Assembly: GCF_013122565.1 (NCBI RefSeq)
Contig: NZ_CP053258.1
Direction: 5' to 3' (one strand)
Length of the DNA: 64,000 bases
Source: Escherichia coli
Lineage (GTDB): Bacteria > Pseudomonadota > Gammaproteobacteria > Enterobacterales > Enterobacteriaceae
The notes below the pieces were generated by a model. That model saw nothing but the letters and a program-made list of their open reading frames with translations, did not search any database and was not told the DNA's origin. This document shows positions 1 through 57,706 of this stretch, piece after piece. Both the position numbers and the translations under genes were made by a program. Numbering within the stretch: position 1 is the first letter of the stretch; the number at the start of each line of letters is the position of its first letter.

Positions 1-1202
1 CACATGGGCAAACCATCATACTCGGGATCCAGTCATACAATACCAGCGTGTTGGGTGGGATTGTGGCAGGGTTATTAGTCGCCAGCATGTATAAAAAGAT
101 CGTTAACTTACGTATTCCTGAATCATTAGGGTTTTATAGTGGCCCACGCCTGGTGCCTATCATTACACTGATTGTGATGAGTGGATTTGGTCTGATCATT
201 CCTTTTATCTGGCCGCCATTTTTCAATCTTTTCATGCTCATTGGTCACTGGATTTCAACTTCCGGTCCTGTTGGTTATTTCTTCTATGCTGTTGCCGAAC
301 GCGTGACGATACCTTTTGGCTTAAATCACTTGGTGACATCAGTTTTCCGCTTTACCCCAATCGGCGGATCGGCAGTGATTGGCGGTGAAGAGTATTACGG
401 CACCCTGAACATGTTTATGGCATACGTCAAAGAGAATGCGGTCATTCCGCTGGATTTGGCGGGGAAAATGGAGCAGGGCAAACTGATGATTCAGTATGGT
501 CTGGCTGGAGCCGCGCTGGCGATGTATCGCACTGCTCATGCTCAAAACAGAAGGGCTATCAAAGCATTGCTGATTTCCGGTGTGCTCACGGTAATTATTG
601 GCGGCGTCAGCGAGCCGATTGAATTTCTGTTCTTATTTGTCAGCCCGCTGTTGTTTGTCTTCCATGCCTTTATGAATGGATTGGCTAACATGGTTCTGCC
701 ATATATGGGCGTGAAGATGGGCTTTACTGGCGATCTGATTCAATTTATTAGCTTTGGTGTCTTACGTGGCACAAGAACGGGATGGCCATTAGCGGTATGT
801 GTTGAAGTGGCTTATTTCTTCATTTATTACTTTGTGTTCCGTTGGACCATTCTCAAATTTAACCTGATGACTGTAGGCCGTGAAGAGTCCAGTCCTGTCA
901 CGCTGAACGCTCACGAAGAAACTGCAATAGCTAACATCCCAGTTCATGATAAATCAGAGTTGCAGGCAGCGGAGCAAATGGTTAAGGCTCTGGGTGGTAA
1001 AGAAAATATTAAATCACTGGATAATTGTGTAACTCGTTTGCGTTTAACTATCGCGGATATGGGATTGATAGATGAGGCTGCAATAAAAAGGGCCGGAGGA
1101 ATTGCGGTTGTGAAACTTGATCAAAATACCTTACAAGTCATTATCGGTACAAAAGTCATCGCACTACGTCGGGATATGGATAACTACATGGGGATATGTT
1201 GA
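1..1202 (+). CDS. PTS glucose/maltose-family EIICB component (MalX/PtsG-like), N-terminally truncated by window edge
   Basis: Frame is open from position 3 with no stop before ORF 48..1202. EIIC-like motif GVSEPIEF and a C-terminal EIIB segment with the Cys motif NCVTRLR. Directly followed by a MalY-like gene, as in malXY. Confidence 0.85.
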   Translation, partial: HGQTIILGIQSYNTSVLGGIVAGLLVASMYKKIVNLRIPESLGFYSGPRLVPIITLIVMSGFGLIIPFIWPPFFNLFMLIGHWISTSGPVGYFFYAVAERVTIPFGLNHLVTSVFRFTPIGGSAVIGGEEYYGTLNMFMAYVKENAVIPLDLAGKMEQGKLMIQYGLAGAALAMYRTAHAQNRRAIKALLISGVLTVIIGGVSEPIEFLFLFVSPLLFVFHAFMNGLANMVLPYMGVKMGFTGDLIQFISFGVLRGTRTGWPLAVCVEVAYFFIYYFVFRWTILKFNLMTVGREESSPVTLNAHEETAIANIPVHDKSELQAAEQMVKALGGKENIKSLDNCVTRLRLTIADMGLIDEAAIKRAGGIAVVKLDQNTLQVIIGTKVIALRRDMDNYMGIC

Positions 1203-2410
1203 TGGATATTTTTAATACCTCAATTTCTCGTAAAGGAACATATTGCACACAATGGGACTTTTGTGAAGACAGATTTGGTGTAAAAGATGTATTACCATTC
1301 TCTATTTCAGATATGGATCTTCCGATACCGGAAGCTATCATCAGAACATTAAAAAAACGTCTGGAACACCCGATTTTAGGGTACAGTCGTTGGCAGCATG
1401 ATGACTATCTGAATTCGATAGTCAATTGGTATCATCAACAATATAAAACAGAGATTCAACCAGAATGGATCACCTATAGCCCAAGCGTGATGTATTCAAT
1501 ATCTAAGGCAATAGAAATATTGACATTGAATGGAGATAATATTCTCATTTTCACGCCTGTTTATAACGCATTTTATGATGTGATTAAGCATAATGGTCGA
1601 AACATGCTAACAACCTCTTTGATGAAAGAAAATGGGAGAGGCTACGTTATCAACTGGCAAGACTTTGAGCTTAAAATTAAAAGCGCGAAGATGGTGTTAT
1701 TATGTAATCCTCATAACCCGACAGGAACGGTCTGGTCGGAAGACGATCTTCACAGAATCGCAGCATGCTGTGCAAGGCATAATATTTGGTTATGTTCAGA
1801 TGAAATACATAGTGATTTTGTTTTTAATCATAGTTTCACGTCAGCGCTAACAATAAAAGATGACAAAGTGGTGGTGTTTAATTCGATTTCGAAAACATTT
1901 AATGTTCCTGCGCTAACCGGATCATATATGATTTCAACTGACGATAATTTTAATCATAAGTTCAGAACGATATCGAGGTATCGCGATTTTGTAAACTCCC
2001 CATCAGTACTGAATGTAATTGCGACCATTGTTGCCTATAATGAATGTGAAGAATGGTTAAAGTCATTAAAGGTACATATTGCCTCTAACATTCAATTTAC
2101 CTTGCAGTATTTAAATGAAAATATTCCGGAATTGATCGTATGGCCAGCTGAGGGCTGCTATTTTTCGTGGGTTGATTGCTCGGCCCTTGGTTATCCCTTT
2201 GATAAATTTTACCGTCGATTAATTAACGAAGGGAGAGTAGGTATTATGGCGGGGCATGTTTATGGTACTGAAGGAGAGGGCTATCTGCGTCTTAATCTGG
2301 CCTGCAGTCGAGAAAAATTATATATGGGGCTTGCGCGCCTTGCGAGTGTAATTAAAAATATTAATCAGGAAAAAGAAAATGAACAATACGGATCTTATCC
2401 ATCTTATTAA
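1196..2410 (+). CDS. PLP-dependent C-S lyase / aminotransferase, MalY/PatB family
   Basis: 404 aa. Collinear with K-12 MalY from memory: CTQWD, LPFSISDMD, LLCNPHNPTG, SDEIH, FNVPALTG. Start overlaps the PTS stop. Confidence 0.85.
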   Translation: MLMDIFNTSISRKGTYCTQWDFCEDRFGVKDVLPFSISDMDLPIPEAIIRTLKKRLEHPILGYSRWQHDDYLNSIVNWYHQQYKTEIQPEWITYSPSVMYSISKAIEILTLNGDNILIFTPVYNAFYDVIKHNGRNMLTTSLMKENGRGYVINWQDFELKIKSAKMVLLCNPHNPTGTVWSEDDLHRIAACCARHNIWLCSDEIHSDFVFNHSFTSALTIKDDKVVVFNSISKTFNVPALTGSYMISTDDNFNHKFRTISRYRDFVNSPSVLNVIATIVAYNECEEWLKSLKVHIASNIQFTLQYLNENIPELIVWPAEGCYFSWVDCSALGYPFDKFYRRLINEGRVGIMAGHVYGTEGEGYLRLNLACSREKLYMGLARLASVIKNINQEKENEQYGSYPSY

Positions 2411-2975
2411 ACATTTTATGCGTAACGAACATAAAGCAGTAGAAGAGGTTATTGATTCCCCCCTTTCGGAAGTCGCGAATTTAATTAAAATATTACAATC
2501 TTGCCAGGGAAAAGTTGTTTTTATTGGTGTTGGGAAATCTGGCATTATTGCCAGAAAACTTGCTGCAACATTTGCCAGCACCGGAACTCCCTCGTTTTTT
2601 GTTCACGGTACGGAAGCGGTACACGGCGACCTTGGGATGGTGGCGAAAGACGATGTTGTTATTCTTATTTCAAACAGTGGTGAGACGGCGGAAATCCTGG
2701 CGACACTGCCTAGTTTGAAAAAAATGGGTAATTATTTGATCTCTTTTACCCGCAGTCATCACTCATCGCTTGCGATAAGTTGTGATTTATCTGTTGAAAT
2801 CCCCGTCAAAAGTGAGGCGGATAATTTAGGTTTAGCACCGTCATGCTCGTCTACTGTTGTTCTGGTTGTTGGTGATGCGGTGGCGCTTGCACTCTCTGAA
2901 TTGAAAAAATTTACTCGTGCTGATTTCGGCTTATATCATCCAGGAGGTGCACTCGGCATTAAAGCAAATTCATAA
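2379..2975 (+). CDS. Single-SIS-domain sugar-phosphate isomerase (arabinose-5-phosphate isomerase-like, no CBS domains)
   Basis: 198 aa. Matches the KdsD/GutQ N-terminal SIS domain: GVGKSG, ATFASTGTPSFFVH, HGDLGMV, ISNSGET, HPGGALG. Lacks the C-terminal CBS pair. Confidence 0.8.
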   Translation: MNNTDLIHLIKHFMRNEHKAVEEVIDSPLSEVANLIKILQSCQGKVVFIGVGKSGIIARKLAATFASTGTPSFFVHGTEAVHGDLGMVAKDDVVILISNSGETAEILATLPSLKKMGNYLISFTRSHHSSLAISCDLSVEIPVKSEADNLGLAPSCSSTVVLVVGDAVALALSELKKFTRADFGLYHPGGALGIKANS

Positions 2976-3037
2976 TTTCAAAGTATAAATACAGTAACCG
3001 GTCACGCCATCTTTTGGGGTGGCGTTCATTGAAGTGA

Positions 3038-3994
3038 GTGTCAGCTATGAAAAATGTTCTGGTCACCGTCCCCAGCTTTTCAGCACGCTGTGTTTCCGCC
3101 AGCAAGTTGCTAAGAGAGAATAATTTTAACCTTATTATTAAGAATAATGTGGAGCATCTGCTTAAATCAGAATCCACTGCATTACGAGAATCTATTTGCG
3201 CGGTCATCGCCGGAAAAGATTGTTACCAGGCGGACACGCTATCATTGCTGCCTGGTGTGAGAATAATATCGAGATTCGGGACGGGGATAGATAATATTGA
3301 TCTTCGTGCAGCACAACAATCCGGTATTGTAGTCAATAATGCGGTTGGGATTAATTCAAATGCTGTCGCGGAATTTATCATTGGACTTATCTTCGCGAGC
3401 ATGAGAAATATTCCTGGCAGCTATCATGCGATGCAAAATGGCTACTGGGGTGAGTCGCATGGCTATGAATTACAAGGCAAACGGATTGGCCTGGTTGGCT
3501 ACGGCAATATAGGTAAAACCCTGGCAAAAAGGTTATCCGGTTTTGATGTTGAGCTTTTAGCTTATGACAAACAACCCGATTATCAGGTTGCTGACAAAGT
3601 TGGAGTTCAGTTTGTATCAATTGAAGATATCTTTATGCAGTCGCATGTCATCATTGTTCTTTTGCCTTTTTCTCCTGAGCTGGAGAACTTCATTAGTCAT
3701 AAATATTTGTCGATGATGCGCAATGGTGCTCTAATCATCAATGCCGCAAGGGGAAAGTTGCTGGATGAGGGCGCTTTACTACAGGTGATTGAAGAACGAA
3801 ATGTGTTTGCGGCGCTGGATGTGTTTAGCTCTGAACCGTTGGCGCAATTTAGCCCACTGCTACATGCCAAAAATATCATTACAACGCCGCATATTGCGGC
3901 CGCCACCGTTGAGTCATACCAGCAAACCGGTACACACGTTGCCCAGTCGATAATTGATTACTTCGCAGGAAGGGAGATAAAAAACGTGTTGTGA
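3038..3994 (+). CDS. D-isomer-specific 2-hydroxyacid dehydrogenase, NAD-binding
   Basis: 318 aa. Rossmann GxGxxG (GLVGYGNIGKTLAKRL) and the TPHIAAAT catalytic-region motif. Track start is GTG at 3038; an ATG at 3047 is an alternative. Confidence 0.8.
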   Translation: MSAMKNVLVTVPSFSARCVSASKLLRENNFNLIIKNNVEHLLKSESTALRESICAVIAGKDCYQADTLSLLPGVRIISRFGTGIDNIDLRAAQQSGIVVNNAVGINSNAVAEFIIGLIFASMRNIPGSYHAMQNGYWGESHGYELQGKRIGLVGYGNIGKTLAKRLSGFDVELLAYDKQPDYQVADKVGVQFVSIEDIFMQSHVIIVLLPFSPELENFISHKYLSMMRNGALIINAARGKLLDEGALLQVIEERNVFAALDVFSSEPLAQFSPLLHAKNIITTPHIAAATVESYQQTGTHVAQSIIDYFAGREIKNVL

Positions 3995-4020: not shown

Positions 4021-4055
4021 AAAAAAACCGCAATTTGTGGAACACATTGCGGTTT
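4021..4055 (-). terminator. Rho-independent terminator downstream of tRNA-fMet
   Basis: Inverted repeat aaaccgcaat / attgcggttt; on the minus strand it is followed by a 7-T run. Lies just past the tRNA 3' end. Confidence 0.6.
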
Positions 4056-4072
4056 ATCAGCATTCTAAGTAT

Positions 4073-4149
<77 letters not shown>

Positions 4150-4357
4150 TCCGTGGATGCGCACTATACTCCGCTCGCGTTTTCATGCAACCTTTTTTTT
4201 ACCCCGATCACGGTTCTGGCATGATTTTGAACAAAAACAAATCACTAAAGCCTATTTTTTGTGCAAAATTTGCGTCAGGGAGAGGCTGCTCATTTCATTA
4301 AACGCGGCGGTTTGTTATCTTCGTTGCGCCTTATTTTTTAACCTGAAGAAGAGAACA

Positions 4358-5455
4358 ATGAAAGGACGTTGGGTAAAGTACCTTCTTATGGGCACGGTTG
4401 TGGCAATGCTTGCCGCCTGCTCTTCCAAACCAACCGATCGCGGACAGCAATATAAAGACGGGAAATTTACCCAGCCTTTCTCTCTGGTGAACCAGCCAGA
4501 TGCCGTTGGCGCGCCGATTAACGCCGGTGATTTTGCTGAGCAAATTAACCATATCCGTAATTCGTCACCGCGTCTGTATGGCAACCAGAGTAATGTTTAT
4601 AACGCGGTGCAAGAGTGGCTGCGCGCAGGCGGTGATACCCGCAATATGCGCCAGTTCGGCATTGATGCCTGGCAGATGGAAGGTGCCGACAACTATGGTA
4701 ACGTGCAGTTTACAGGCTATTACACGCCGGTAATTCAGGCGCGCCATACCCGCCAGGGCGAGTTCCAGTATCCGATTTACCGTATGCCGCCAAAACGTGG
4801 TCGTCTGCCGTCTCGTGCGGAGATCTACGCGGGGGCATTGAGCGATAAATACATCCTCGCTTACAGCAACTCTCTGATGGATAATTTCATTATGGATGTG
4901 CAGGGTAGTGGGTATATCGACTTTGGTGATGGCAGCCCCCTTAACTTTTTCAGCTATGCAGGGAAAAACGGTCATGCCTATCGCAGCATTGGTAAGGTGC
5001 TGATCGACCGTGGCGAAGTGAAAAAAGAAGATATGTCGATGCAAGCGATTCGTCACTGGGGCGAAACACACAGTGAAGCCGAGGTTCGCGAGCTGCTGGA
5101 ACAGAACCCGTCTTTTGTCTTCTTTAAACCGCAATCTTTTGCACCGGTGAAAGGGGCAAGTGCGGTGCCGCTGGTTGGTCGTGCTTCTGTTGCCTCTGAT
5201 CGTTCCATTATTCCGCCAGGTACTACCTTGCTGGCAGAAGTGCCGTTACTGGATAATAACGGCAAATTTAATGGTCAGTACGAACTGCGTCTGATGGTGG
5301 CGCTGGATGTCGGTGGCGCAATCAAAGGCCAACACTTCGATATCTATCAAGGGATCGGGCCGGAAGCCGGACACCGTGCAGGTTGGTACAACCACTATGG
5401 ACGGGTTTGGGTACTGAAAACGGCTCCGGGCGCAGGTAACGTCTTTAGCGGCTGA
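4358..5455 (+). CDS. mltA: Membrane-bound lytic murein transglycosylase A
   Basis: Internal ATG of ORF 4037..5455 with SD aagaagaga. Lipoprotein signal MKGRWVKYLLMGTVVAMLAACSS. 365 aa as in K-12. The longer track ORF overlaps the tRNA and is rejected. Confidence 0.93.
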   Translation: MKGRWVKYLLMGTVVAMLAACSSKPTDRGQQYKDGKFTQPFSLVNQPDAVGAPINAGDFAEQINHIRNSSPRLYGNQSNVYNAVQEWLRAGGDTRNMRQFGIDAWQMEGADNYGNVQFTGYYTPVIQARHTRQGEFQYPIYRMPPKRGRLPSRAEIYAGALSDKYILAYSNSLMDNFIMDVQGSGYIDFGDGSPLNFFSYAGKNGHAYRSIGKVLIDRGEVKKEDMSMQAIRHWGETHSEAEVRELLEQNPSFVFFKPQSFAPVKGASAVPLVGRASVASDRSIIPPGTTLLAEVPLLDNNGKFNGQYELRLMVALDVGGAIKGQHFDIYQGIGPEAGHRAGWYNHYGRVWVLKTAPGAGNVFSG

Positions 5456-5542: not shown

Positions 5543-5641
5543 TGCCGGATGCGGCGTGAACGCCTTATCCGGCCTACAAATCATGCAAATCCAAAATATT
5601 GCAGGAGTTATGTAGGCCTGATAAGCGTAGCGCATCAGGCA
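5543..5641. repeat. REP/BIME palindromic elements (two REP units)
   Basis: gccggatgcggcgtgaacgccttatccggcctaca and tgtaggcctgataagcgtagcgcatcaggca, typical enterobacterial REP consensus. Confidence 0.8.
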
Positions 5642-6506: not shown

Positions 6507-6542
6507 AGGTCGGATGCGACGCGAACGTCTTATCCGACCTGG
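6507..6542. repeat. REP-like palindrome between convergent tcdA and csdE
   Basis: aggtcggatgcgacgcgaacgtcttatccgacctgg; probable bidirectional terminator or REP. Confidence 0.6.
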
Positions 6543-19688: not shown

Positions 19689-19720
19689 TGCCGGATGCGA
19701 CGTTTGCGGCGTATCCGGCA
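19689..19720. repeat. REP element between convergent fucO and xni
   Basis: tgccggatgcgacgtttgcggcgtatccggca palindrome. Confidence 0.7.
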
Positions 19721-33612: not shown

Positions 33613-33650
33613 TTGTAGGCCGGATAAGGCGTTAACGCCGCATCCGGCAT
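33613..33650. repeat. REP element between gudD and barA
   Basis: ttgtaggccggataaggcgttaacgccgcatccggcat. Confidence 0.7.
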
Positions 33651-37884: not shown

Positions 37885-40119
37885 ATGGTTGCGGTAAGAA
37901 GTGCACATATCAATAAGGCTGGTGAATTTGATCCGGAAAAATGGATCGCAAGTCTGGGTATTACCAGCCAGAAGTCGTGTGAGTGCTTAGCCGAAACCTG
38001 GGCGTATTGTCTGCAACAGACGCAGGGGCATCCGGATGCCAGTCTGTTATTGTGGCGTGGTGTTGAGATGGTGGAGATCCTCTCGACATTAAGTATGGAC
38101 ATTGACACGCTGCGGGCGGCGCTGCTTTTCCCTCTGGCGGATGCCAACGTAGTCAGCGAAGATGTGCTGCGTGAGAGCGTCGGTAAGTCGGTCGTTAACC
38201 TTATTCACGGCGTGCGTGATATGGCGGCGATCCGCCAGCTGAAAGCGACGCACACTGATTCTGTTTCCTCCGAACAGGTCGATAACGTTCGCCGGATGTT
38301 ATTGGCGATGGTCGATGATTTTCGCTGCGTGGTCATCAAACTGGCGGAGCGTATTGCTCATCTGCGTGAAGTAAAAGATGCGCCGGAAGATGAACGCGTA
38401 CTGGCGGCAAAAGAGTGCACCAATATCTACGCGCCGTTGGCAAACCGTCTTGGGATTGGGCAACTGAAATGGGAGCTGGAAGATTACTGCTTCCGTTATC
38501 TCCACCCGACCGAATACAAACGCATCGCAAAACTGTTGCATGAACGCCGTCTCGACCGCGAACACTATATCGAAGAGTTTGTCGGTCATCTGCGCGCTGA
38601 GATGAAAGCTGAAGGCGTTAAAGCTGAAGTGTATGGTCGTCCGAAACACATCTACAGCATCTGGCGCAAAATGCAGAAAAAGAACCTCGCCTTCGATGAG
38701 CTGTTTGATGTGCGTGCGGTACGTATTGTCGCCGAGCGTTTACAGGATTGTTATGCCGCACTGGGGATAGTGCACACTCACTATCGCCACCTGCCGGATG
38801 AGTTTGACGATTATGTCGCTAACCCGAAACCAAACGGTTATCAGTCTATTCATACCGTGGTTCTGGGGCCGGGTGGAAAAACCGTTGAGATCCAAATCCG
38901 CACCAAACAGATGCATGAAGATGCAGAGTTGGGTGTTGCTGCGCACTGGAAATATAAAGAGGGCGCGGCAGCTGGCGGCGCACGTTCGGGACATGAAGAC
39001 CGGATTGCCTGGCTGCGTAAACTGATTGCGTGGCAGGAAGAGATGGCTGATTCCGGCGAAATGCTCGACGAAGTACGTAGTCAGGTCTTTGACGACCGGG
39101 TGTACGTCTTTACGCCGAAAGGTGATGTCGTTGATTTGCCTGCGGGATCAACGCCGCTGGACTTCGCTTACCACATCCACAGTGATGTCGGACACCGCTG
39201 CATCGGGGCAAAAATTGGCGGGCGCATTGTGCCGTTCACCTACCAGCTGCAGATGGGCGACCAGATTGAAATTATCACCCAGAAACAGCCGAACCCCAGC
39301 CGTGACTGGTTAAACCCAAACCTCGGTTACGTCACAACCAGCCGTGGGCGTTCGAAAATTCACGCCTGGTTCCGTAAACAGGACCGTGACAAAAACATTC
39401 TGGCTGGGCGGCAAATCCTTGACGACGAGCTGGAACATCTGGGGATCAGCCTGAAAGAAGCAGAAAAACATCTGCTGCCGCGTTACAACTTCAATGATGT
39501 CGACGAGTTGCTGGCGGCGATTGGTGGAGGGGATATCCGTCTCAATCAGATGGTAAACTTCCTGCAATCGCAATTTAATAAGCCGAGTGCCGAAGAGCAG
39601 GACGCCGCCGCGCTGAAGCAACTTCAGCAAAAAAGCTACACGCCGCAAAACCGCAGTAAAGATAACGGTCGTGTGGTGGTTGAAGGTGTCGGTAACCTGA
39701 TGCACCACATCGCGCGCTGCTGCCAGCCGATTCCTGGAGATGAGATTGTCGGCTTCATTACCCAGGGACGCGGTATTTCAGTACACCGCGCCGATTGCGA
39801 ACAACTGGCGGAACTGCGCTCCCATGCGCCAGAACGCATTGTTGACGCGGTATGGGGCGAGAGCTACTCCGCCGGATATTCGCTGGTGGTCCGCGTGGTG
39901 GCTAATGATCGTAGTGGGTTGTTACGTGATATCACGACCATTCTCGCCAATGAGAAAGTGAACGTGCTTGGCGTTGCCAGCCGTAGCGACACCAAACAGC
40001 AACTGGCGACCATCGACATGACCATTGAGATTTACAACCTGCAAGTGCTGGGTCGCGTGCTGGGTAAACTCAACCAGGTGCCGGATGTTATCGACGCGCG
40101 TCGGTTGCACGGGAGTTAG
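37885..40119 (+). CDS. relA: GTP pyrophosphokinase RelA ((p)ppGpp synthetase I)
   Basis: 744 aa. Confidence 0.95.
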   Translation: MVAVRSAHINKAGEFDPEKWIASLGITSQKSCECLAETWAYCLQQTQGHPDASLLLWRGVEMVEILSTLSMDIDTLRAALLFPLADANVVSEDVLRESVGKSVVNLIHGVRDMAAIRQLKATHTDSVSSEQVDNVRRMLLAMVDDFRCVVIKLAERIAHLREVKDAPEDERVLAAKECTNIYAPLANRLGIGQLKWELEDYCFRYLHPTEYKRIAKLLHERRLDREHYIEEFVGHLRAEMKAEGVKAEVYGRPKHIYSIWRKMQKKNLAFDELFDVRAVRIVAERLQDCYAALGIVHTHYRHLPDEFDDYVANPKPNGYQSIHTVVLGPGGKTVEIQIRTKQMHEDAELGVAAHWKYKEGAAAGGARSGHEDRIAWLRKLIAWQEEMADSGEMLDEVRSQVFDDRVYVFTPKGDVVDLPAGSTPLDFAYHIHSDVGHRCIGAKIGGRIVPFTYQLQMGDQIEIITQKQPNPSRDWLNPNLGYVTTSRGRSKIHAWFRKQDRDKNILAGRQILDDELEHLGISLKEAEKHLLPRYNFNDVDELLAAIGGGDIRLNQMVNFLQSQFNKPSAEEQDAAALKQLQQKSYTPQNRSKDNGRVVVEGVGNLMHHIARCCQPIPGDEIVGFITQGRGISVHRADCEQLAELRSHAPERIVDAVWGESYSAGYSLVVRVVANDRSGLLRDITTILANEKVNVLGVASRSDTKQQLATIDMTIEIYNLQVLGRVLGKLNQVPDVIDARRLHGS

Positions 40120-40128
40120 TCTTACATA

Positions 40129-40165
40129 GCTGGATATGGCGTCAGCCGTATCCAGCGATATCTTT
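40129..40165 (+). terminator. Hairpin downstream of relA
   Basis: gctggata-N12-tatccagc followed by a T-rich stretch. Weak terminator or processing structure. Confidence 0.4.
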
Positions 40166-40214
40166 TACTCGAAGGTATTACACCTGACAGATCCGCAATT
40201 TTCAGGACAATTCA

Positions 40215-41006
40215 ATGAATCAAATCGACCGTTTGCTCACCATCATGCAGCGTCTTCGCGACCCGGAAAACGGCTGCCCGTGGGATAAAGAGCAGACATT
40301 TGCAACCATTGCGCCTTACACCCTTGAAGAAACCTACGAAGTGCTGGACGCCATCGCCCGCGAAGACTTTGACGATCTGCGCGGTGAACTCGGCGATCTG
40401 CTGTTCCAGGTGGTGTTTTACGCACAAATGGCCCAGGAAGAAGGGCGCTTTGATTTTAATGATATTTGCGCCGCGATTAGCGATAAATTAGAGCGTCGCC
40501 ATCCGCATGTTTTTGCTGACAGTTCTGCCGGAAACAGCCGCGAAGTTCTCGCCCGTTGGGAGCAAATCAAAACCGAAGAGCGCGCGCAGAAAGCGCAGCA
40601 TTCGGCGCTGGACGATATTCCTCGTAGTTTACCAGCCTTAATGCGTGCGCAAAAAATCCAGAAACGTTGCGCCAACGTTGGCTTCGACTGGACGACGCTT
40701 GGCCCGGTGGTTGATAAAGTCTACGAAGAGATCGATGAGGTGATGTGCGAGGCACGGCAGGCTGTTATCGACCAGGCTAAACTGGAGGAGGAAATGGGGG
40801 ACCTGCTGTTTGCCACGGTCAATCTGGCTCGTCATTTAGGGACAAAAGCGGAAATCGCATTGCAAAAAGCGAACGAAAAATTCGAGCGTCGTTTTCGCGA
40901 AGTGGAGCGTATTGTTGCCGCGCGTGGACTGGAAATGACAGGTGTTGACCTCGAAACAATGGAAGAAGTCTGGCAACAGGTAAAACGGCAGGAAATTGAT
41001 CTCTAA
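40215..41006 (+). CDS. mazG: Nucleoside triphosphate pyrophosphohydrolase MazG
   Basis: 263 aa. Lies 95 bp after relA, with no mazEF between. Confidence 0.93.
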   Translation: MNQIDRLLTIMQRLRDPENGCPWDKEQTFATIAPYTLEETYEVLDAIAREDFDDLRGELGDLLFQVVFYAQMAQEEGRFDFNDICAAISDKLERRHPHVFADSSAGNSREVLARWEQIKTEERAQKAQHSALDDIPRSLPALMRAQKIQKRCANVGFDWTTLGPVVDKVYEEIDEVMCEARQAVIDQAKLEEEMGDLLFATVNLARHLGTKAEIALQKANEKFERRFREVERIVAARGLEMTGVDLETMEEVWQQVKRQEIDL

Positions 41007-51601: not shown

Positions 51602-51639
51602 TGTAGGCCTGATAAGACGCGTGAGCGTCGCATCAGGCA
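51602..51639. repeat. REP element between cysI and cysH
   Basis: tgtaggcctgataagacgcgtgagcgtcgcatcaggca. Confidence 0.7.
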
Positions 51640-53048: not shown

Positions 53049-54392
53049 GTGACTTTCTTTGATTTCTGGGGAAAAACCCGACGTGGCGAGAAAGAAGGGG
53101 GCGACGGCTATCACCTTCTTTGCTGGCATTCGCTGGATGTGGCCGCGATGGGCTATTTAATGGTTAAAAGAAATTGCTTCGGGCTGGCTGACTATTTTCG
53201 TCAATTAGGGATTTCTGACAAGGAACAGGCAGCTCAATTTTTCGCCTGGTTGCTGTGCTGGCACGATATTGGAAAATTTGCCCGCTCTTTTCAACAACTT
53301 TACCTGCCCCCTGAATTCAAGATTCAGGAAGGTGCCAGAAAAAATTACGAAAAAATCTCTCATTCAACGCTGGGCTACTGGTTGTGGAATCATTATTTAA
53401 GTGAATGTCAGGAGTTACTTCCTTCATCTTCGCTCTCTCCGCGCAAACTTAGGCGAGTGATAGAAATGTGGATGCCCGTGACGACAGGGCATCATGGTCG
53501 GCCCCCTGATCGTATGGATGAATTGGATAATTTTCTGCCTGAAGACAAAGCTGCAGCACGAGATTTTCTCCTTGAAATCAAACCACTGTTTCCGCTCATA
53601 GAGATCCCCGCATTCTGGGATGATGATGAGGGCATTGAACTTATAAAACACCTTTCCTGGTATATCTCTGCAACCGTCGTGCTCGCAGACTGGACGGGTT
53701 CGTCAACGCGATTTTTTCCACGCGTCGCACACCCAATGGATATTAAAGGTTACTGGCAGAAAACTTTAGTTCAGGCTCAAAATGCCTTAACCGTCTTTCC
53801 TCTAAAAGCAAAAGTCGCGCCTTTCACCGGAATTAATACGCTGTTTCCTTTTATTGAGAATCCGACACCGTTACAGCAAAAGGTGCTGGATCTGGATATC
53901 AGCCAGCCAGGGCCACAGTTATTTATTCTGGAAGATGTGACTGGCGCAGGTAAAACGGAAGCGGCGCTTATCCTGGCGCACAGGTTGATGGCTGCGGGTA
54001 AAGCGCAGGGTTTGTTTTTTGGCCTGCCAACAATGGCAACGGCCAATGCCATGTATGATCGGCTCGTCAAAACCTGGCTTTCTTTCTATTCGCCAGAATC
54101 TCGCCCCAGCCTGGTGCTGGCACACAGTGCCCGCACATTAATGGACCGCTTTAATGAATCACTCTGGTCCGGTGATTTAATCGGGTCAGAAGAACCGGAT
54201 GAACAAGCTTTCAGCCAGGGTTGTGCGGCCTGGTTTGCCGACAGTAACAAGAAGGCGTTGCTGGCTGAAATTGGCGTCGGCACCCTGGATCAGGCGATGA
54301 TGGCAGTGATGCCGTTTAAACATAATAATCTGCGGCTTCTGGGGCTGAGTAACAAAATCGTGTTCCCCGCGCCAGCGGGGATAAACCGATGA
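53049..54392 (+). pseudogene. cas3: Truncated cas3 (type I-E; HD nuclease domain and start of helicase domain only), fused to the CRISPR array
   Basis: 447-aa ORF with a GTG start. HD motif WHDIGKF and Walker A TGAGKTEAA. Collinear with the N-terminal half of K-12 Cas3 (888 aa, from memory). The frame runs through CRISPR repeat 1 (...NKIV|FPAPAGINR) and stops in spacer 1. Confidence 0.88.
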
Positions 54393-56647
54393 ATATTTGC
54401 GAATATTCGGCAGAAAGCGGGTGTTCCCCGCGCCAGCGGGGATAAACCGAGGTTGCGGCACAAATTGAGGTTGTCGCAAATGTGTTCCCCGCGCCAGCGG
54501 GGATAAACCGCCGACGCAGCAGCGGCAGCAGCGGCAGCAGCGGTGTTCCCCGCGCCAGCGGGGATAAACCGTGGATCAGTGCCGCGTTCTCTCTCCGTGT
54601 AATGTGTTCCCCGCGCCAGCGGGGATAAACCGATCGAGACGGGTACGCGTAAAGCCGAGCTGGCGTGTTCCCCGCGCCAGCGGGGATAAACCGCGATCGG
54701 TTAATTCTTCTACCTGCCTTTGCAGGTGTTCCCCGCGCCAGCGGGGATAAACCGCCCGCAATGCATTCGGGCAGTTCCTTGCCGGGGTGTTCCCCGCGCC
54801 AGCGGGGATAAACCGGAGATTGAGCCAGACGCCCGCCAGGTGTTACTGTGTTCCCCGCGCCAGCGGGGATAAACCGGAAGTAACACACCCAACCCAGGTT
54901 GCGCCAGAGTGTTCCCCGCGCCAGCGGGGATAAACCGCCTGTTTGAGCAGGCGCGAATGAACCGGACCAGTGTTCCCCGCGCCAGCGGGGATAAACCGTC
55001 AGGTAAGCCAGTGTTAGGGGCAATATAGCAGTGTTCCCCGCGCCAGCGGGGATAAACCGTCATCGGCTCGTTATTTGTAGCCAGCACTACGGTGTTCCCC
55101 GCGCCAGCGGGGATAAACCGCTTTATCAGATGGTAAAGGTGAATCAATATGAGTGTTCCCCGCGCCAGCGGGGATAAACCGATACCCCAGCGTTTCGTTA
55201 TATGACGGAAGATGTGTTCCCCGCGCCAGCGGGGATAAACCGTGCAACCAGGACGGCAGGACGCATCGCCAGATGTGTTCCCCGCGCCAGCGGGGATAAA
55301 CCGCACGTTATTATCCGATATTCACCGATAAGCGTGTGTTCCCCGCGCCAGCGGGGATAAACCGTCTGGGCGTAAACAGTCGGATAAATCGCGGGTGTGT
55401 TCCCCGCGCCAGCGGGGATAAACCGGCGGCGTGTGGGGTAACAATCAGGGAGAGAAAGTGTTCCCCGCGCCAGCGGGGATAAACCGGATAAATACAGTAT
55501 ATTCCCGCGCTCTGCTGGCGTGTTCCCCGCGCCAGCGGGGATAAACCGTAGATTTTGTCCGGCTCAGGTGCGCCGATGGTGTGTTCCCCGCGCCAGCGGG
55601 GATAAACCGATCGAGTACAACAAAAAATATACTGAGTGAGTGTGTTCCCCGCGCCAGCGGGGATAAACCGCTGTTTGCTCCTGCTGCTCATTTAGTGATT
55701 TAGTGTTCCCCGCGCCAGCGGGGATAAACCGCCTGTTCTTTTTTAGTCAACTTAACCATGCTCGTGTTCCCCGCGCCAGCGGGGATAAACCGTCTTTTTC
55801 GAGACTTGCAGCAACGCTCTGAAAGTGTTCCCCGCGCCAGCGGGGATAAACCGATCGAGTAGTTTTGAGGGTTGGTGAATTCAGGGTGTTCCCCGCGCCA
55901 GCGGGGATAAACCGCTTAATAAATGGACTTAAGCGCCCAGTATTGGGTGTTCCCCGCGCCAGCGGGGATAAACCGGGGAGGGCGAGCCGCCGTAGGTGCG
56001 GTGAGGGGTGTTCCCCGCGCCAGCGGGGATAAACCGACGCAGAAACTGGTTGAAATAGTTTACGGTGAGTGTTCCCCGCGCCAGCGGGGATAAACCGGCA
56101 GTAAATTATTTGACCTCGTTGATAATCCCGTGTTCCCCGCGCCAGCGGGGATAAACCGGTGGCGGTGTGATTGTGGGACTTATTGCCATCGTGTTCCCCG
56201 CGCCAGCGGGGATAAACCGGGCCTTTTCAGCAGATTAACCGCCGCGATTGCGTGTTCCCCGCGCCAGCGGGGATAAACCGAGAGATTTATATTCTTTCAA
56301 ACCGGATTATATCGTGTTCCCCGCGCCAGCGGGGATAAACCGCTTCAAGAATTTTTAAACGCTGGCTTCAAAATGTGTTCCCCGCGCCAGCGGGGATAAA
56401 CCGTCCCACGCGTGCCAGATGGCGCGTTTGATGGCGTGTTCCCCGCGCCAGCGGGGATAAACCGATGATAACGGCAAAGGGTACGCTACGTACAACGTGT
56501 TCCCCGCGCCAGCGGGGTTAAACTGTGATCCAGTGAGTACCGATCCGGGAACAACCGGTGTTCCTCGCATCAGCGGGGATAAACCGGGTGCACTGGATGC
56601 GATGATGGATATCACTTGGCGTTCCCCCGCCCCTGCGGTAGAACTCC
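54360..56647 (+). CRISPR. Type I-E CRISPR array: 37 repeat-spacer units plus a highly degenerate terminal repeat; no leader, no adjacent cas operon
   Basis: 29-bp repeat gtgttccccgcgccagcggggataaaccg with period 61. Spacers are 32 bp except one of 33 bp (55487..55519). Repeat phase verified against the antisense artefact ORFs ([10 protein letters not shown] / VYPRWRGEH / GLSPLARGT). Degenerate repeats at 56497, 56558 and 56619 mark the leader-distal end, next to iap. Confidence 0.97.
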
Positions 56648-56668: not shown

Positions 56669-57706
56669 TCAAGACGCCTTCGCCAACTCCTTCACCAGAG
56701 GTAGCATTATCCGCATAACGTCACGGCAGCGACGTTCTATTCTTCCAGGAAGTGCCTTATCAATATGCTGTTGATTATCCAGTCTTACGTCATGCCAGCT
56801 ATTTCCCGCAGGGAATGCGGCTGTTTTTGCGCGTTGCTGATAACCATCCTTATTCCCAAGATTCCAGTTAGTCGCTTCCACCGAAAGTACAGCAATGCCC
56901 GCTTTGTCGAATATTTCGGCGTCATTACAACATCCAGTGCCTTTCGGATAATTTTTATTCAAACCCGGATTGGTCGTTGCGGCAATTCCATGACTACGCG
57001 CAATTGCCAGCGCCCTGTCGCGCGTTAATTTCCTTACTGCTTCAGGGGTTTTTACACCGCTGTTGAAATACAATTTATCGCCAACAATTAAGTTATCGAG
57101 ATTAATCACCAGCAGCGTATTTTTCTTTTCGGTGTCACTCATCCGCTTGAGTAAATTCTCAGCGCCTAATTTTCCTTCCTCTTCGCCGCTGGTCGCCACA
57201 AATCGAATACCATACTCGGTAGGCGTATTTTTCAGGCGTTCTGCCAGTTCCAGCATGACACCTAAACCTGCGGCGTTATCATCTATTCCTTGTAACGTCA
57301 GTCCGCCGAGATTGGCATCGGCGTCAGCATCGCTCAGCGGGGCGTAAGTATCCAGATGCGCCATAATGATGATCTGCTGCGGCGCTTTGCCTTCATGAGC
57401 GGCAATCACCGTACTTCCCGTCACGTTATGCCAGCTCTTACGATTATCGCGGGCGGTATAAATATATCGACTATTAAATGTCCGAATATCACTGCGATAA
57501 CCCATTTGCTGAAACTGTTGGCGAATATAATCGGCAGATAACATTTCTGCAGGAGTTCCGGTCATGCGTCCCGGAAAGAAAGTAGCAATATGTCGTGCCT
57601 GGGTATTAGCAAAATCGCCAGGTTTAGGTGACGAGGCGTGTACGGGGAGAATAAAGCATACGCCGAGCGCCAGGGCAGCGGTACGGTGGCGCAATGCGGA
57701 AAACAT
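56669..57706 (-). CDS. iap: Alkaline phosphatase isozyme conversion aminopeptidase Iap
   Basis: 345 aa, signal peptide, M28-type peptidase. Confidence 0.93.
   Translation of the reverse strand: MFSALRHRTAALALGVCFILPVHASSPKPGDFANTQARHIATFFPGRMTGTPAEMLSADYIRQQFQQMGYRSDIRTFNSRYIYTARDNRKSWHNVTGSTVIAAHEGKAPQQIIIMAHLDTYAPLSDADADANLGGLTLQGIDDNAAGLGVMLELAERLKNTPTEYGIRFVATSGEEEGKLGAENLLKRMSDTEKKNTLLVINLDNLIVGDKLYFNSGVKTPEAVRKLTRDRALAIARSHGIAATTNPGLNKNYPKGTGCCNDAEIFDKAGIAVLSVEATNWNLGNKDGYQQRAKTAAFPAGNSWHDVRLDNQQHIDKALPGRIERRCRDVMRIMLPLVKELAKAS

Follow-up and report, generated by a model that had tools for sequence, protein, structure and literature searches.

The site between relA and mazG is treated as the 'classic' mazEF locus (PMC7232551), and a chromosome on which these two genes lie next to each other raises the question of whether the toxin–antitoxin module was lost there or never arrived. 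We examined this question in an Escherichia coli strain by using a 64-kb window, the whole stretch of DNA that was analysed. An earlier reading, made from the sequence only, had placed the end of relA at 40119 and the start of mazG at 40215, and had described the 95-bp spacer between them as holding a hairpin and neither mazE nor mazF. The list of open reading frames and the NCBIfam identities agree with these coordinates, and we find a strong hairpin in the spacer and no coding capacity for MazE or MazF. The features of the locus, all on the + strand, are as follows.

37885..40119, +, relA (GTP diphosphokinase, 744 aa), from the open reading frame list; full-length NCBIfam match to NF008124, 1678 bits (cutoff 728)
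40117-40119, +, relA stop codon, TAG
40120..40214, +, relA–mazG intergenic spacer, 95 bp, unoccupied (mazEF-negative) allele
40120..40180, +, 61-bp segment specific to the empty allele, from blastn of the window against K-12 and alignment
40129..40156, +, REP-like hairpin with a 12-bp stem and a 4-nt loop, from a terminator scan and folding
40157..40179, +, second, weaker A/U-rich predicted stem-loop of 9 pairs, several of them G-U, from folding; no covariation, status uncertain
40181..40214, +, mazG leader, 34 bp, common to the empty and the mazEF-bearing alleles; 59/60 identity to K-12 over 40181-40240
40204-40207, +, Shine-Dalgarno-like AGGA in the mazG leader, read from the sequence
40215..41006, +, mazG (nucleoside triphosphate pyrophosphohydrolase, 263 aa); NCBIfam TIGR00444, 416.9 bits, and NF007113, 369 bits

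The mazEF module is absent from its canonical site

By NCBIfam, rlmD lies upstream of relA and pyrG downstream of mazG. Both relA and mazG are intact, and no functional part is missing at the locus. A 50-aa open reading frame at 40136..40288, which overlaps the start of mazG, has no NCBIfam match and was dismissed.

The K-12 gene order that the sequence-only reading had given, relA-mazE-mazF-mazG, is correct, as seen in the K-12 strain RP437. MazE, with an open reading frame of 82 aa, is too long for a 95-bp spacer. In tblastn searches of the 64-kb window, neither K-12 MazE nor K-12 MazF had a match at a cutoff of E<=1e-3; relaxing the cutoff to E<=10 brought up nothing but noise, at E>=1.1 for MazE and E>=3 for MazF. 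A blastn-short comparison of the spacer with the K-12 locus also detected no match to the K-12 mazE promoter region, with its ATCTACAATGTAGAT palindrome, between the relA stop and 40181. The tblastn searches and the length of the spacer thus support the claim that this strain is without mazEF at the canonical site, and the strain is not expected to show the phenotypes of K-12 mazEF.

The empty and the occupied alleles differ by replacement

The sequence-only reading had left two histories side by side, an ancestral empty site and a precise loss, and had proposed comparing the junction with the relA-mazE and mazF-mazG boundaries of K-12. In this comparison the flanks are conserved: the window and K-12 are homologous through the final base of the relA stop, and the homology picks up again at 40181. 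From there to the mazG ATG 34 bp are shared, among them the ribosome-binding site. Between these homologous flanks, the window has the 61 bp of 40120..40180, with the REP-like hairpin inside, whereas K-12 has 697 bp made up of the mazE promoter region, mazE, mazF and a trailer. Inspection of the alignments by eye revealed no target-site duplications at the boundaries of the K-12 insertion. These alignments correct the earlier picture of a clean junction: one allele has 61 bp where the other has 697 bp, so that a replacement separates them, and neither a simple insertion nor a simple deletion does.

A clean-looking junction between an intact relA and an intact mazG might suggest that, in the lineage of this strain, a K-12-type locus lost mazEF by a precise or nearly precise deletion. 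Such a deletion, however, cannot create the 61 bp with their conserved REP-like hairpin, which are absent from K-12; by blastn, 40120..40180 is not derivable from the sequence of the K-12 mazEF region. The 61 bp are, moreover, homologous to the spacers of outgroups. We scanned for MazG with one genome per GTDB species and obtained 80 Enterobacterales loci. In 79 of the 80 species representatives relA lies within 4 kb upstream of mazG; none of these 79 has a match to MazE or MazF between the two genes, and in 62 of them the spacer is no longer than 150 bp. Escherichia whittamii and the representatives E69 and SCPM-O-B-8794, the last two being divergent 'E. coli' representatives, have a spacer of 94-95 bp that can be aligned throughout with that of the window and shares its hairpin. 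In Citrobacter species the 61 bp are still recognisable, with a looser likeness, and canonical REPs occupy the orthologous position in the spacer.

A genuine deletion allele is found in Escherichia albertii, and it retains the ends of the module. In the type strain NBRC 107761 the spacer (locus L006, 3740-4000) is 261 bp long. It starts with the K-12 mazE promoter region (27/30) and carries, toward its 3' end, the 3' end of mazF (15/15); from the post-mazF trailer through the shared leader to the start of mazG, 85 of 92 positions match. Two REPs lie between the remnants of the mazE promoter and the mazF tail. As read from its sequence, this spacer is a decayed K-12-type mazEF locus and represents a real loss. 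Because the mazE-promoter and mazF-tail remnants flank the REPs, the K-12-type insertion was once present in E. albertii, or was transferred to it, and later disappeared. Unlike E. albertii, the window has no such K-12-type remnants, neither mazE promoter nor mazF tail, in its spacer. Taken with the outgroup spacers, these comparisons leave a deletion from a K-12-type locus with hardly any probability in this strain.

We conclude that the window very probably carries the ancestral, never-occupied relA–mazG spacer, with a REP-like hairpin between the genes, and that the allele of this strain never received mazEF. An ancestral site is favoured over a precise loss because deletion of a K-12-type mazEF cannot yield the 61 bp of the window. 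Of the two histories proposed earlier, the first thus stands, with the 61 bp conserved in outgroups, and the second falls, with the same 61 bp missing from K-12. In about four fifths of E. coli, a mobile mazEF with its own promoter would have replaced the 61 bp, hairpin included, and the relA–mazG of this strain would represent the original state of the operon. The term 'ancestral' applies to the type of allele and not necessarily to all ancestors of the strain, because the scar in E. albertii means either that the K-12-type insertion is of long standing or that it has passed from one species to another. These comparisons also provide a rule for telling the states apart: an allele with the hairpin was never occupied, while a scar of the E. 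albertii type marks a true loss.

Both alleles are common in E. coli

The distribution of the empty site, whose survey had been another proposed check, was followed within E. coli as well as in the 79 Enterobacterales representatives. The query was 96 nt of spacer, in which the shared flank is too short to seed megablast on K-12-type alleles. The window-type spacer was present in 1006 of 5426 complete E. coli genomes (18.5%), at one place in each and always on the chromosome. Its identity across these genomes is 90.6-99.0%, with a coverage of 100% among the matches listed and at least 80% in all, and each of the 1006 differs from the spacer of the window by at least 1 nt (best 99.0%). The K-12-specific mazEF segment was present in 4419 of the 5426 genomes (81.4%), never on a plasmid record. 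Because the two counts sum to 5425, the number of E. coli genomes that hold the relA–mazG region, E. coli has essentially two states here, the empty one in about 18.5% of the genomes and the occupied one in 81.4%, with their non-overlap read from the totals.

These counts bear on whether mazEF has moved to another chromosomal site or to a plasmid, in which case the strain would not truly lack the module. The protein searches covered the 64-kb window, and distant relatives of K-12 mazEF, at 65-69% nucleotide identity, do occur on mostly conjugative plasmids of Klebsiella, Providencia, Proteus and E. coli. Nevertheless, across the 5426 complete genomes the number of places with the K-12-type segment has a median of one and a maximum of 2, with 0 plasmid records; in SW07163, the one two-place genome among those listed, the segment is split. 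The matching totals, moreover, fit a mutual exclusivity of the two states. We therefore regard relocation as highly improbable, and a strain that never received the module at this site remains the preferred reading.

Genomes with the empty allele include CFT073, Nissle 1917-type strains, O25b:H4-ST131, O169:H41 ETEC, 'FDA strain Seattle 1946' and APEC strains. A stop-to-start spacing of about 95 bp is also seen in KE55, Nissle, CFT073, 118UI and 88-3493. The junctions of CFT073, Nissle 1917, UTI89, ST131 and ATCC 25922 resemble that of the window in gene order, in the 95-bp spacer and in the hairpin, with a spacer identity of 95.8-99.0%; the window differs from mazEF-negative E. coli such as CFT073 in the divergent 5' half of its mazG.

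Two records stood apart in these searches. In SW07163 (NZ_CM129852.1, ~1018132-1019061) only the mazF part of the segment (57%) is contiguous with mazG, and the query matched at two places, a pattern suggesting that mazE is interrupted by an insertion or has been rearranged. The other, NZ_OL790696.1, is a 4.8-Mb E. coli entry of the plasmid collection with K-12 mazEF at 99.4%; this is evidently a misfiled chromosome, and not a plasmid-borne copy of mazEF.

The presence or absence of mazEF between relA and mazG is a well-documented polymorphism of E. coli, and as such is already known and ordinary. A 2020 review (PMC7167474) describes relA–mazG as an undisturbed operon in many strains and the site as plastic, and names UTI89, of phylogroup B2, as mazEF-negative. 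A passage in PMC4963858, citing Fiedoruk et al. 2015, relates the type II toxin–antitoxin complement of E. coli to phylogroup, B2 having few such systems. With 18.5% of complete E. coli genomes carrying it and the review describing it, the empty site is less unusual than the sequence-only reading had implied. The details added here are the exact boundaries of the replacement, the REP-like nature and conservation of the hairpin that was replaced, the E. albertii scar, and further cargo at the site in other genera.

Mosaic flanks and a divergent mazG

Over the 10.7-kb barA-eno region, the closest E. coli genomes (99.0-99.1%) are 88-3493, several O169:H41 strains and OkiPb01695. All of these nearest relatives are empty-site, each in a single uninterrupted alignment, and this agreement in sequence favours vertical descent of the allele. 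The best identity of the window to E. coli over 20 kb is 98.0-98.4%. An origin of the window from another Escherichia species was considered and rejected: its distances to E. coli strains are like those among E. coli, with 99.1% over barA-eno, and E. whittamii, E. albertii, E69 and SCPM-O-B-8794 are only 94.6-96.0% identical to it.

The empty allele could, however, have been re-introduced by homologous recombination instead of being vertically inherited, because the flanks are slightly closer to the mazEF-bearing strain JNE23-001 than to CFT073 or 118UI and the region is mosaic. An ancestor with mazEF would then have lost it secondarily, by acquiring the empty allele of another E. coli through the relA and mazG flanks. 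The flanks are 98.6-98.8% identical to JNE23-001 as compared with 97.9-98.3% to CFT073 and 118UI, divergence along the region is patchy, and the 5' half of mazG looks foreign. Despite this mosaicism, the nearest genomes over barA-eno are uniformly empty-site, the spacer itself is 99% identical to those of the empty-site strains KE55 and 118UI, and we identified no break point of recombination on either side of the spacer. On balance such an allelic replacement seems to us improbable, though less so than relocation or deletion, and we retain the reading in which the allele of this strain was never occupied.

The foreign-looking part of mazG is 40215-40700, which has no match above 96.7% in any of 5425 E. 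coli genomes while the neighbouring genes match at ~99%. At seventeen mazG sites (40253-40747; 14 in the 5' half) the window departs from five E. coli representatives, and at most of these sites it has the state of another Escherichia species. In the protein, the five representatives all have other residues at G106, R109 and C178; the last of these is unique among the sequences compared, which have Y there. The 5' half of mazG may have been imported, or may branch deeply.

A REP-like hairpin and the expression of mazG

The hairpin begins 9 nt past the relA stop. In the terminator scan 7 of its 12 stem pairs are G-C, and it is directly followed on its 3' side by GATATCTTTT at 40157-40166, in which the longest stretch of T is four. 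The segment 40117-40214, that is, the spacer with the relA stop codon, folds at -34.5 kcal/mol (z = -6.5; 0 shuffles as stable). The hairpin is kept across Escherichia, with one compensatory UA<->CG pair. An Rfam scan of 39500-40800 (E<=1) found no known RNA family in the spacer; its only match was a chance miRNA match inside mazG, at 19 bits against a gathering score of 54.5.

Each arm of the hairpin matches the REP core GCCGGATRMGGCG with 2 mismatches. The core pattern has 25 matches in the window, compared with 6.6 expected, and canonical intergenic inverted pairs at 5544-5573, 6509-6538, 19690-19719, 33619-33648 and 51607-51638 served as the reference REPs. The hairpin is like REP elements in being an extragenic imperfect palindrome just past a stop codon, with arms that resemble the core GCCGGAT(G/A)(C/A)GGCG and an inverted geometry similar to that of the clear REP pairs elsewhere in the window. 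It differs from them in the mismatches of its arms, in a loop that is 2 nt shorter (the arm matches are 15 nt apart, as against 17-19 nt in the clear pairs), and in being a single degenerate copy in the spacer. By these features of sequence the hairpin is best described as REP-like or REP-derived, and not as a canonical REP.

The pattern of an intrinsic terminator is also present, namely a G+C-rich stem-loop and a T-run past a stop codon, but with 3 sites in the scan against 2.0 expected this pattern is weak alone. The hairpin is probably a partial (leaky) intrinsic terminator, a stabiliser of the 3' end of the relA message, or both, roles that fit its position 9 nt past the relA stop and the short T-run. 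Since no convincing promoter lies between the hairpin and mazG, mazG is probably expressed by read-through from relA in a two-gene operon, and the AGGA at 40204-40207 is its likely ribosome-binding site. A candidate mazG promoter, CTGACA-16-GACAAT (40184-40211), which ends 4 nt before the ATG, was rejected as weak, with 1 found and 1.2 in shuffles. Such read-through would agree with PMC7167474, according to which relA–mazG forms an undisturbed bicistronic unit where mazEF is absent, for example in UTI89.

A recurrent site for accessory modules

Other Enterobacterales differ from the window, whose spacer is without any cargo, in what they hold between relA and mazG. In Superficieibacter sp. 1612_C1 (L022, 3237-3786) parDE lies between the two genes (ParD, TIGR02606, 86.5 bits; ParE, PF05016, E = 1.5e-11). 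The review PMC7167474 reports parDE at the relA–mazG site in Salmonella, which resembles the Superficieibacter case in placing a module other than mazEF at this site. Buttiauxella gaviniae (L045, 2259-3927) has a 1.8-kb insert between relA and mazG that encodes hcp/TssD (TIGR03344, 191.8 bits), a 261-aa open reading frame without a family match and a 109-aa membrane open reading frame, and that looks like an orphan type VI effector–immunity cassette. The relA–mazG spacer thus appears from these sequences to have served repeatedly as a place for accessory modules. For mazEF itself, the plasmid-borne relatives would fit a mobile origin of the module.

In Klebsiella spallanzanii (L037, 1-3960), fimbrial usher-like and adhesin-like open reading frames, identified by reading the sequences, stand upstream of mazG in the expected place of relA. 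A 111-aa membrane open reading frame directly before mazG in this species resembles, by eye, a 112-aa open reading frame of Superficieibacter electus (L020, 3566-3904).

Why would one spacer receive cargo again and again? The ancestral REP-like hairpin may itself be the target that makes the site a recurrent landing pad, because what mazEF replaced is precisely the 61 bp with the hairpin, because unrelated cargo (parDE, the hcp cassette, fimbrial genes) shares the spacer in other genera, and because REPs fill the deletion scar of E. albertii. We consider this idea unlikely, if somewhat less so than the alternatives to an ancestral site weighed above. If it were true, REP-associated recombination or transposition would explain how promoter-bearing toxin–antitoxin cassettes enter operons without recognisable mobile-element ends.

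Other features of the window

Two further observations concern other parts of the window. ARAGORN calls a tRNA-Met (CAT) at 4073-4149 on the - strand, which overlaps a 472-aa open reading frame on the + strand at 4037..5455; possibly the tRNA call is a false positive, or the start of the open reading frame is wrong.

In 53049-56159 there is a truncated cas3 of 447 aa, whose match to NF007248 covers model positions 6-441 of 878. Directly after it come two short CRISPR arrays of type I-E, at 54479-54876 and 56008-56159, in which the repeat is GTGTTCCCCGCGCCAGCGGGGATAAACCG. Among the open reading frames, no long one was seen where the other cas genes would be expected, before iap (56669-57706). 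From its sequence this region looks like one in which the cas operon was deleted and the arrays were left as orphans.
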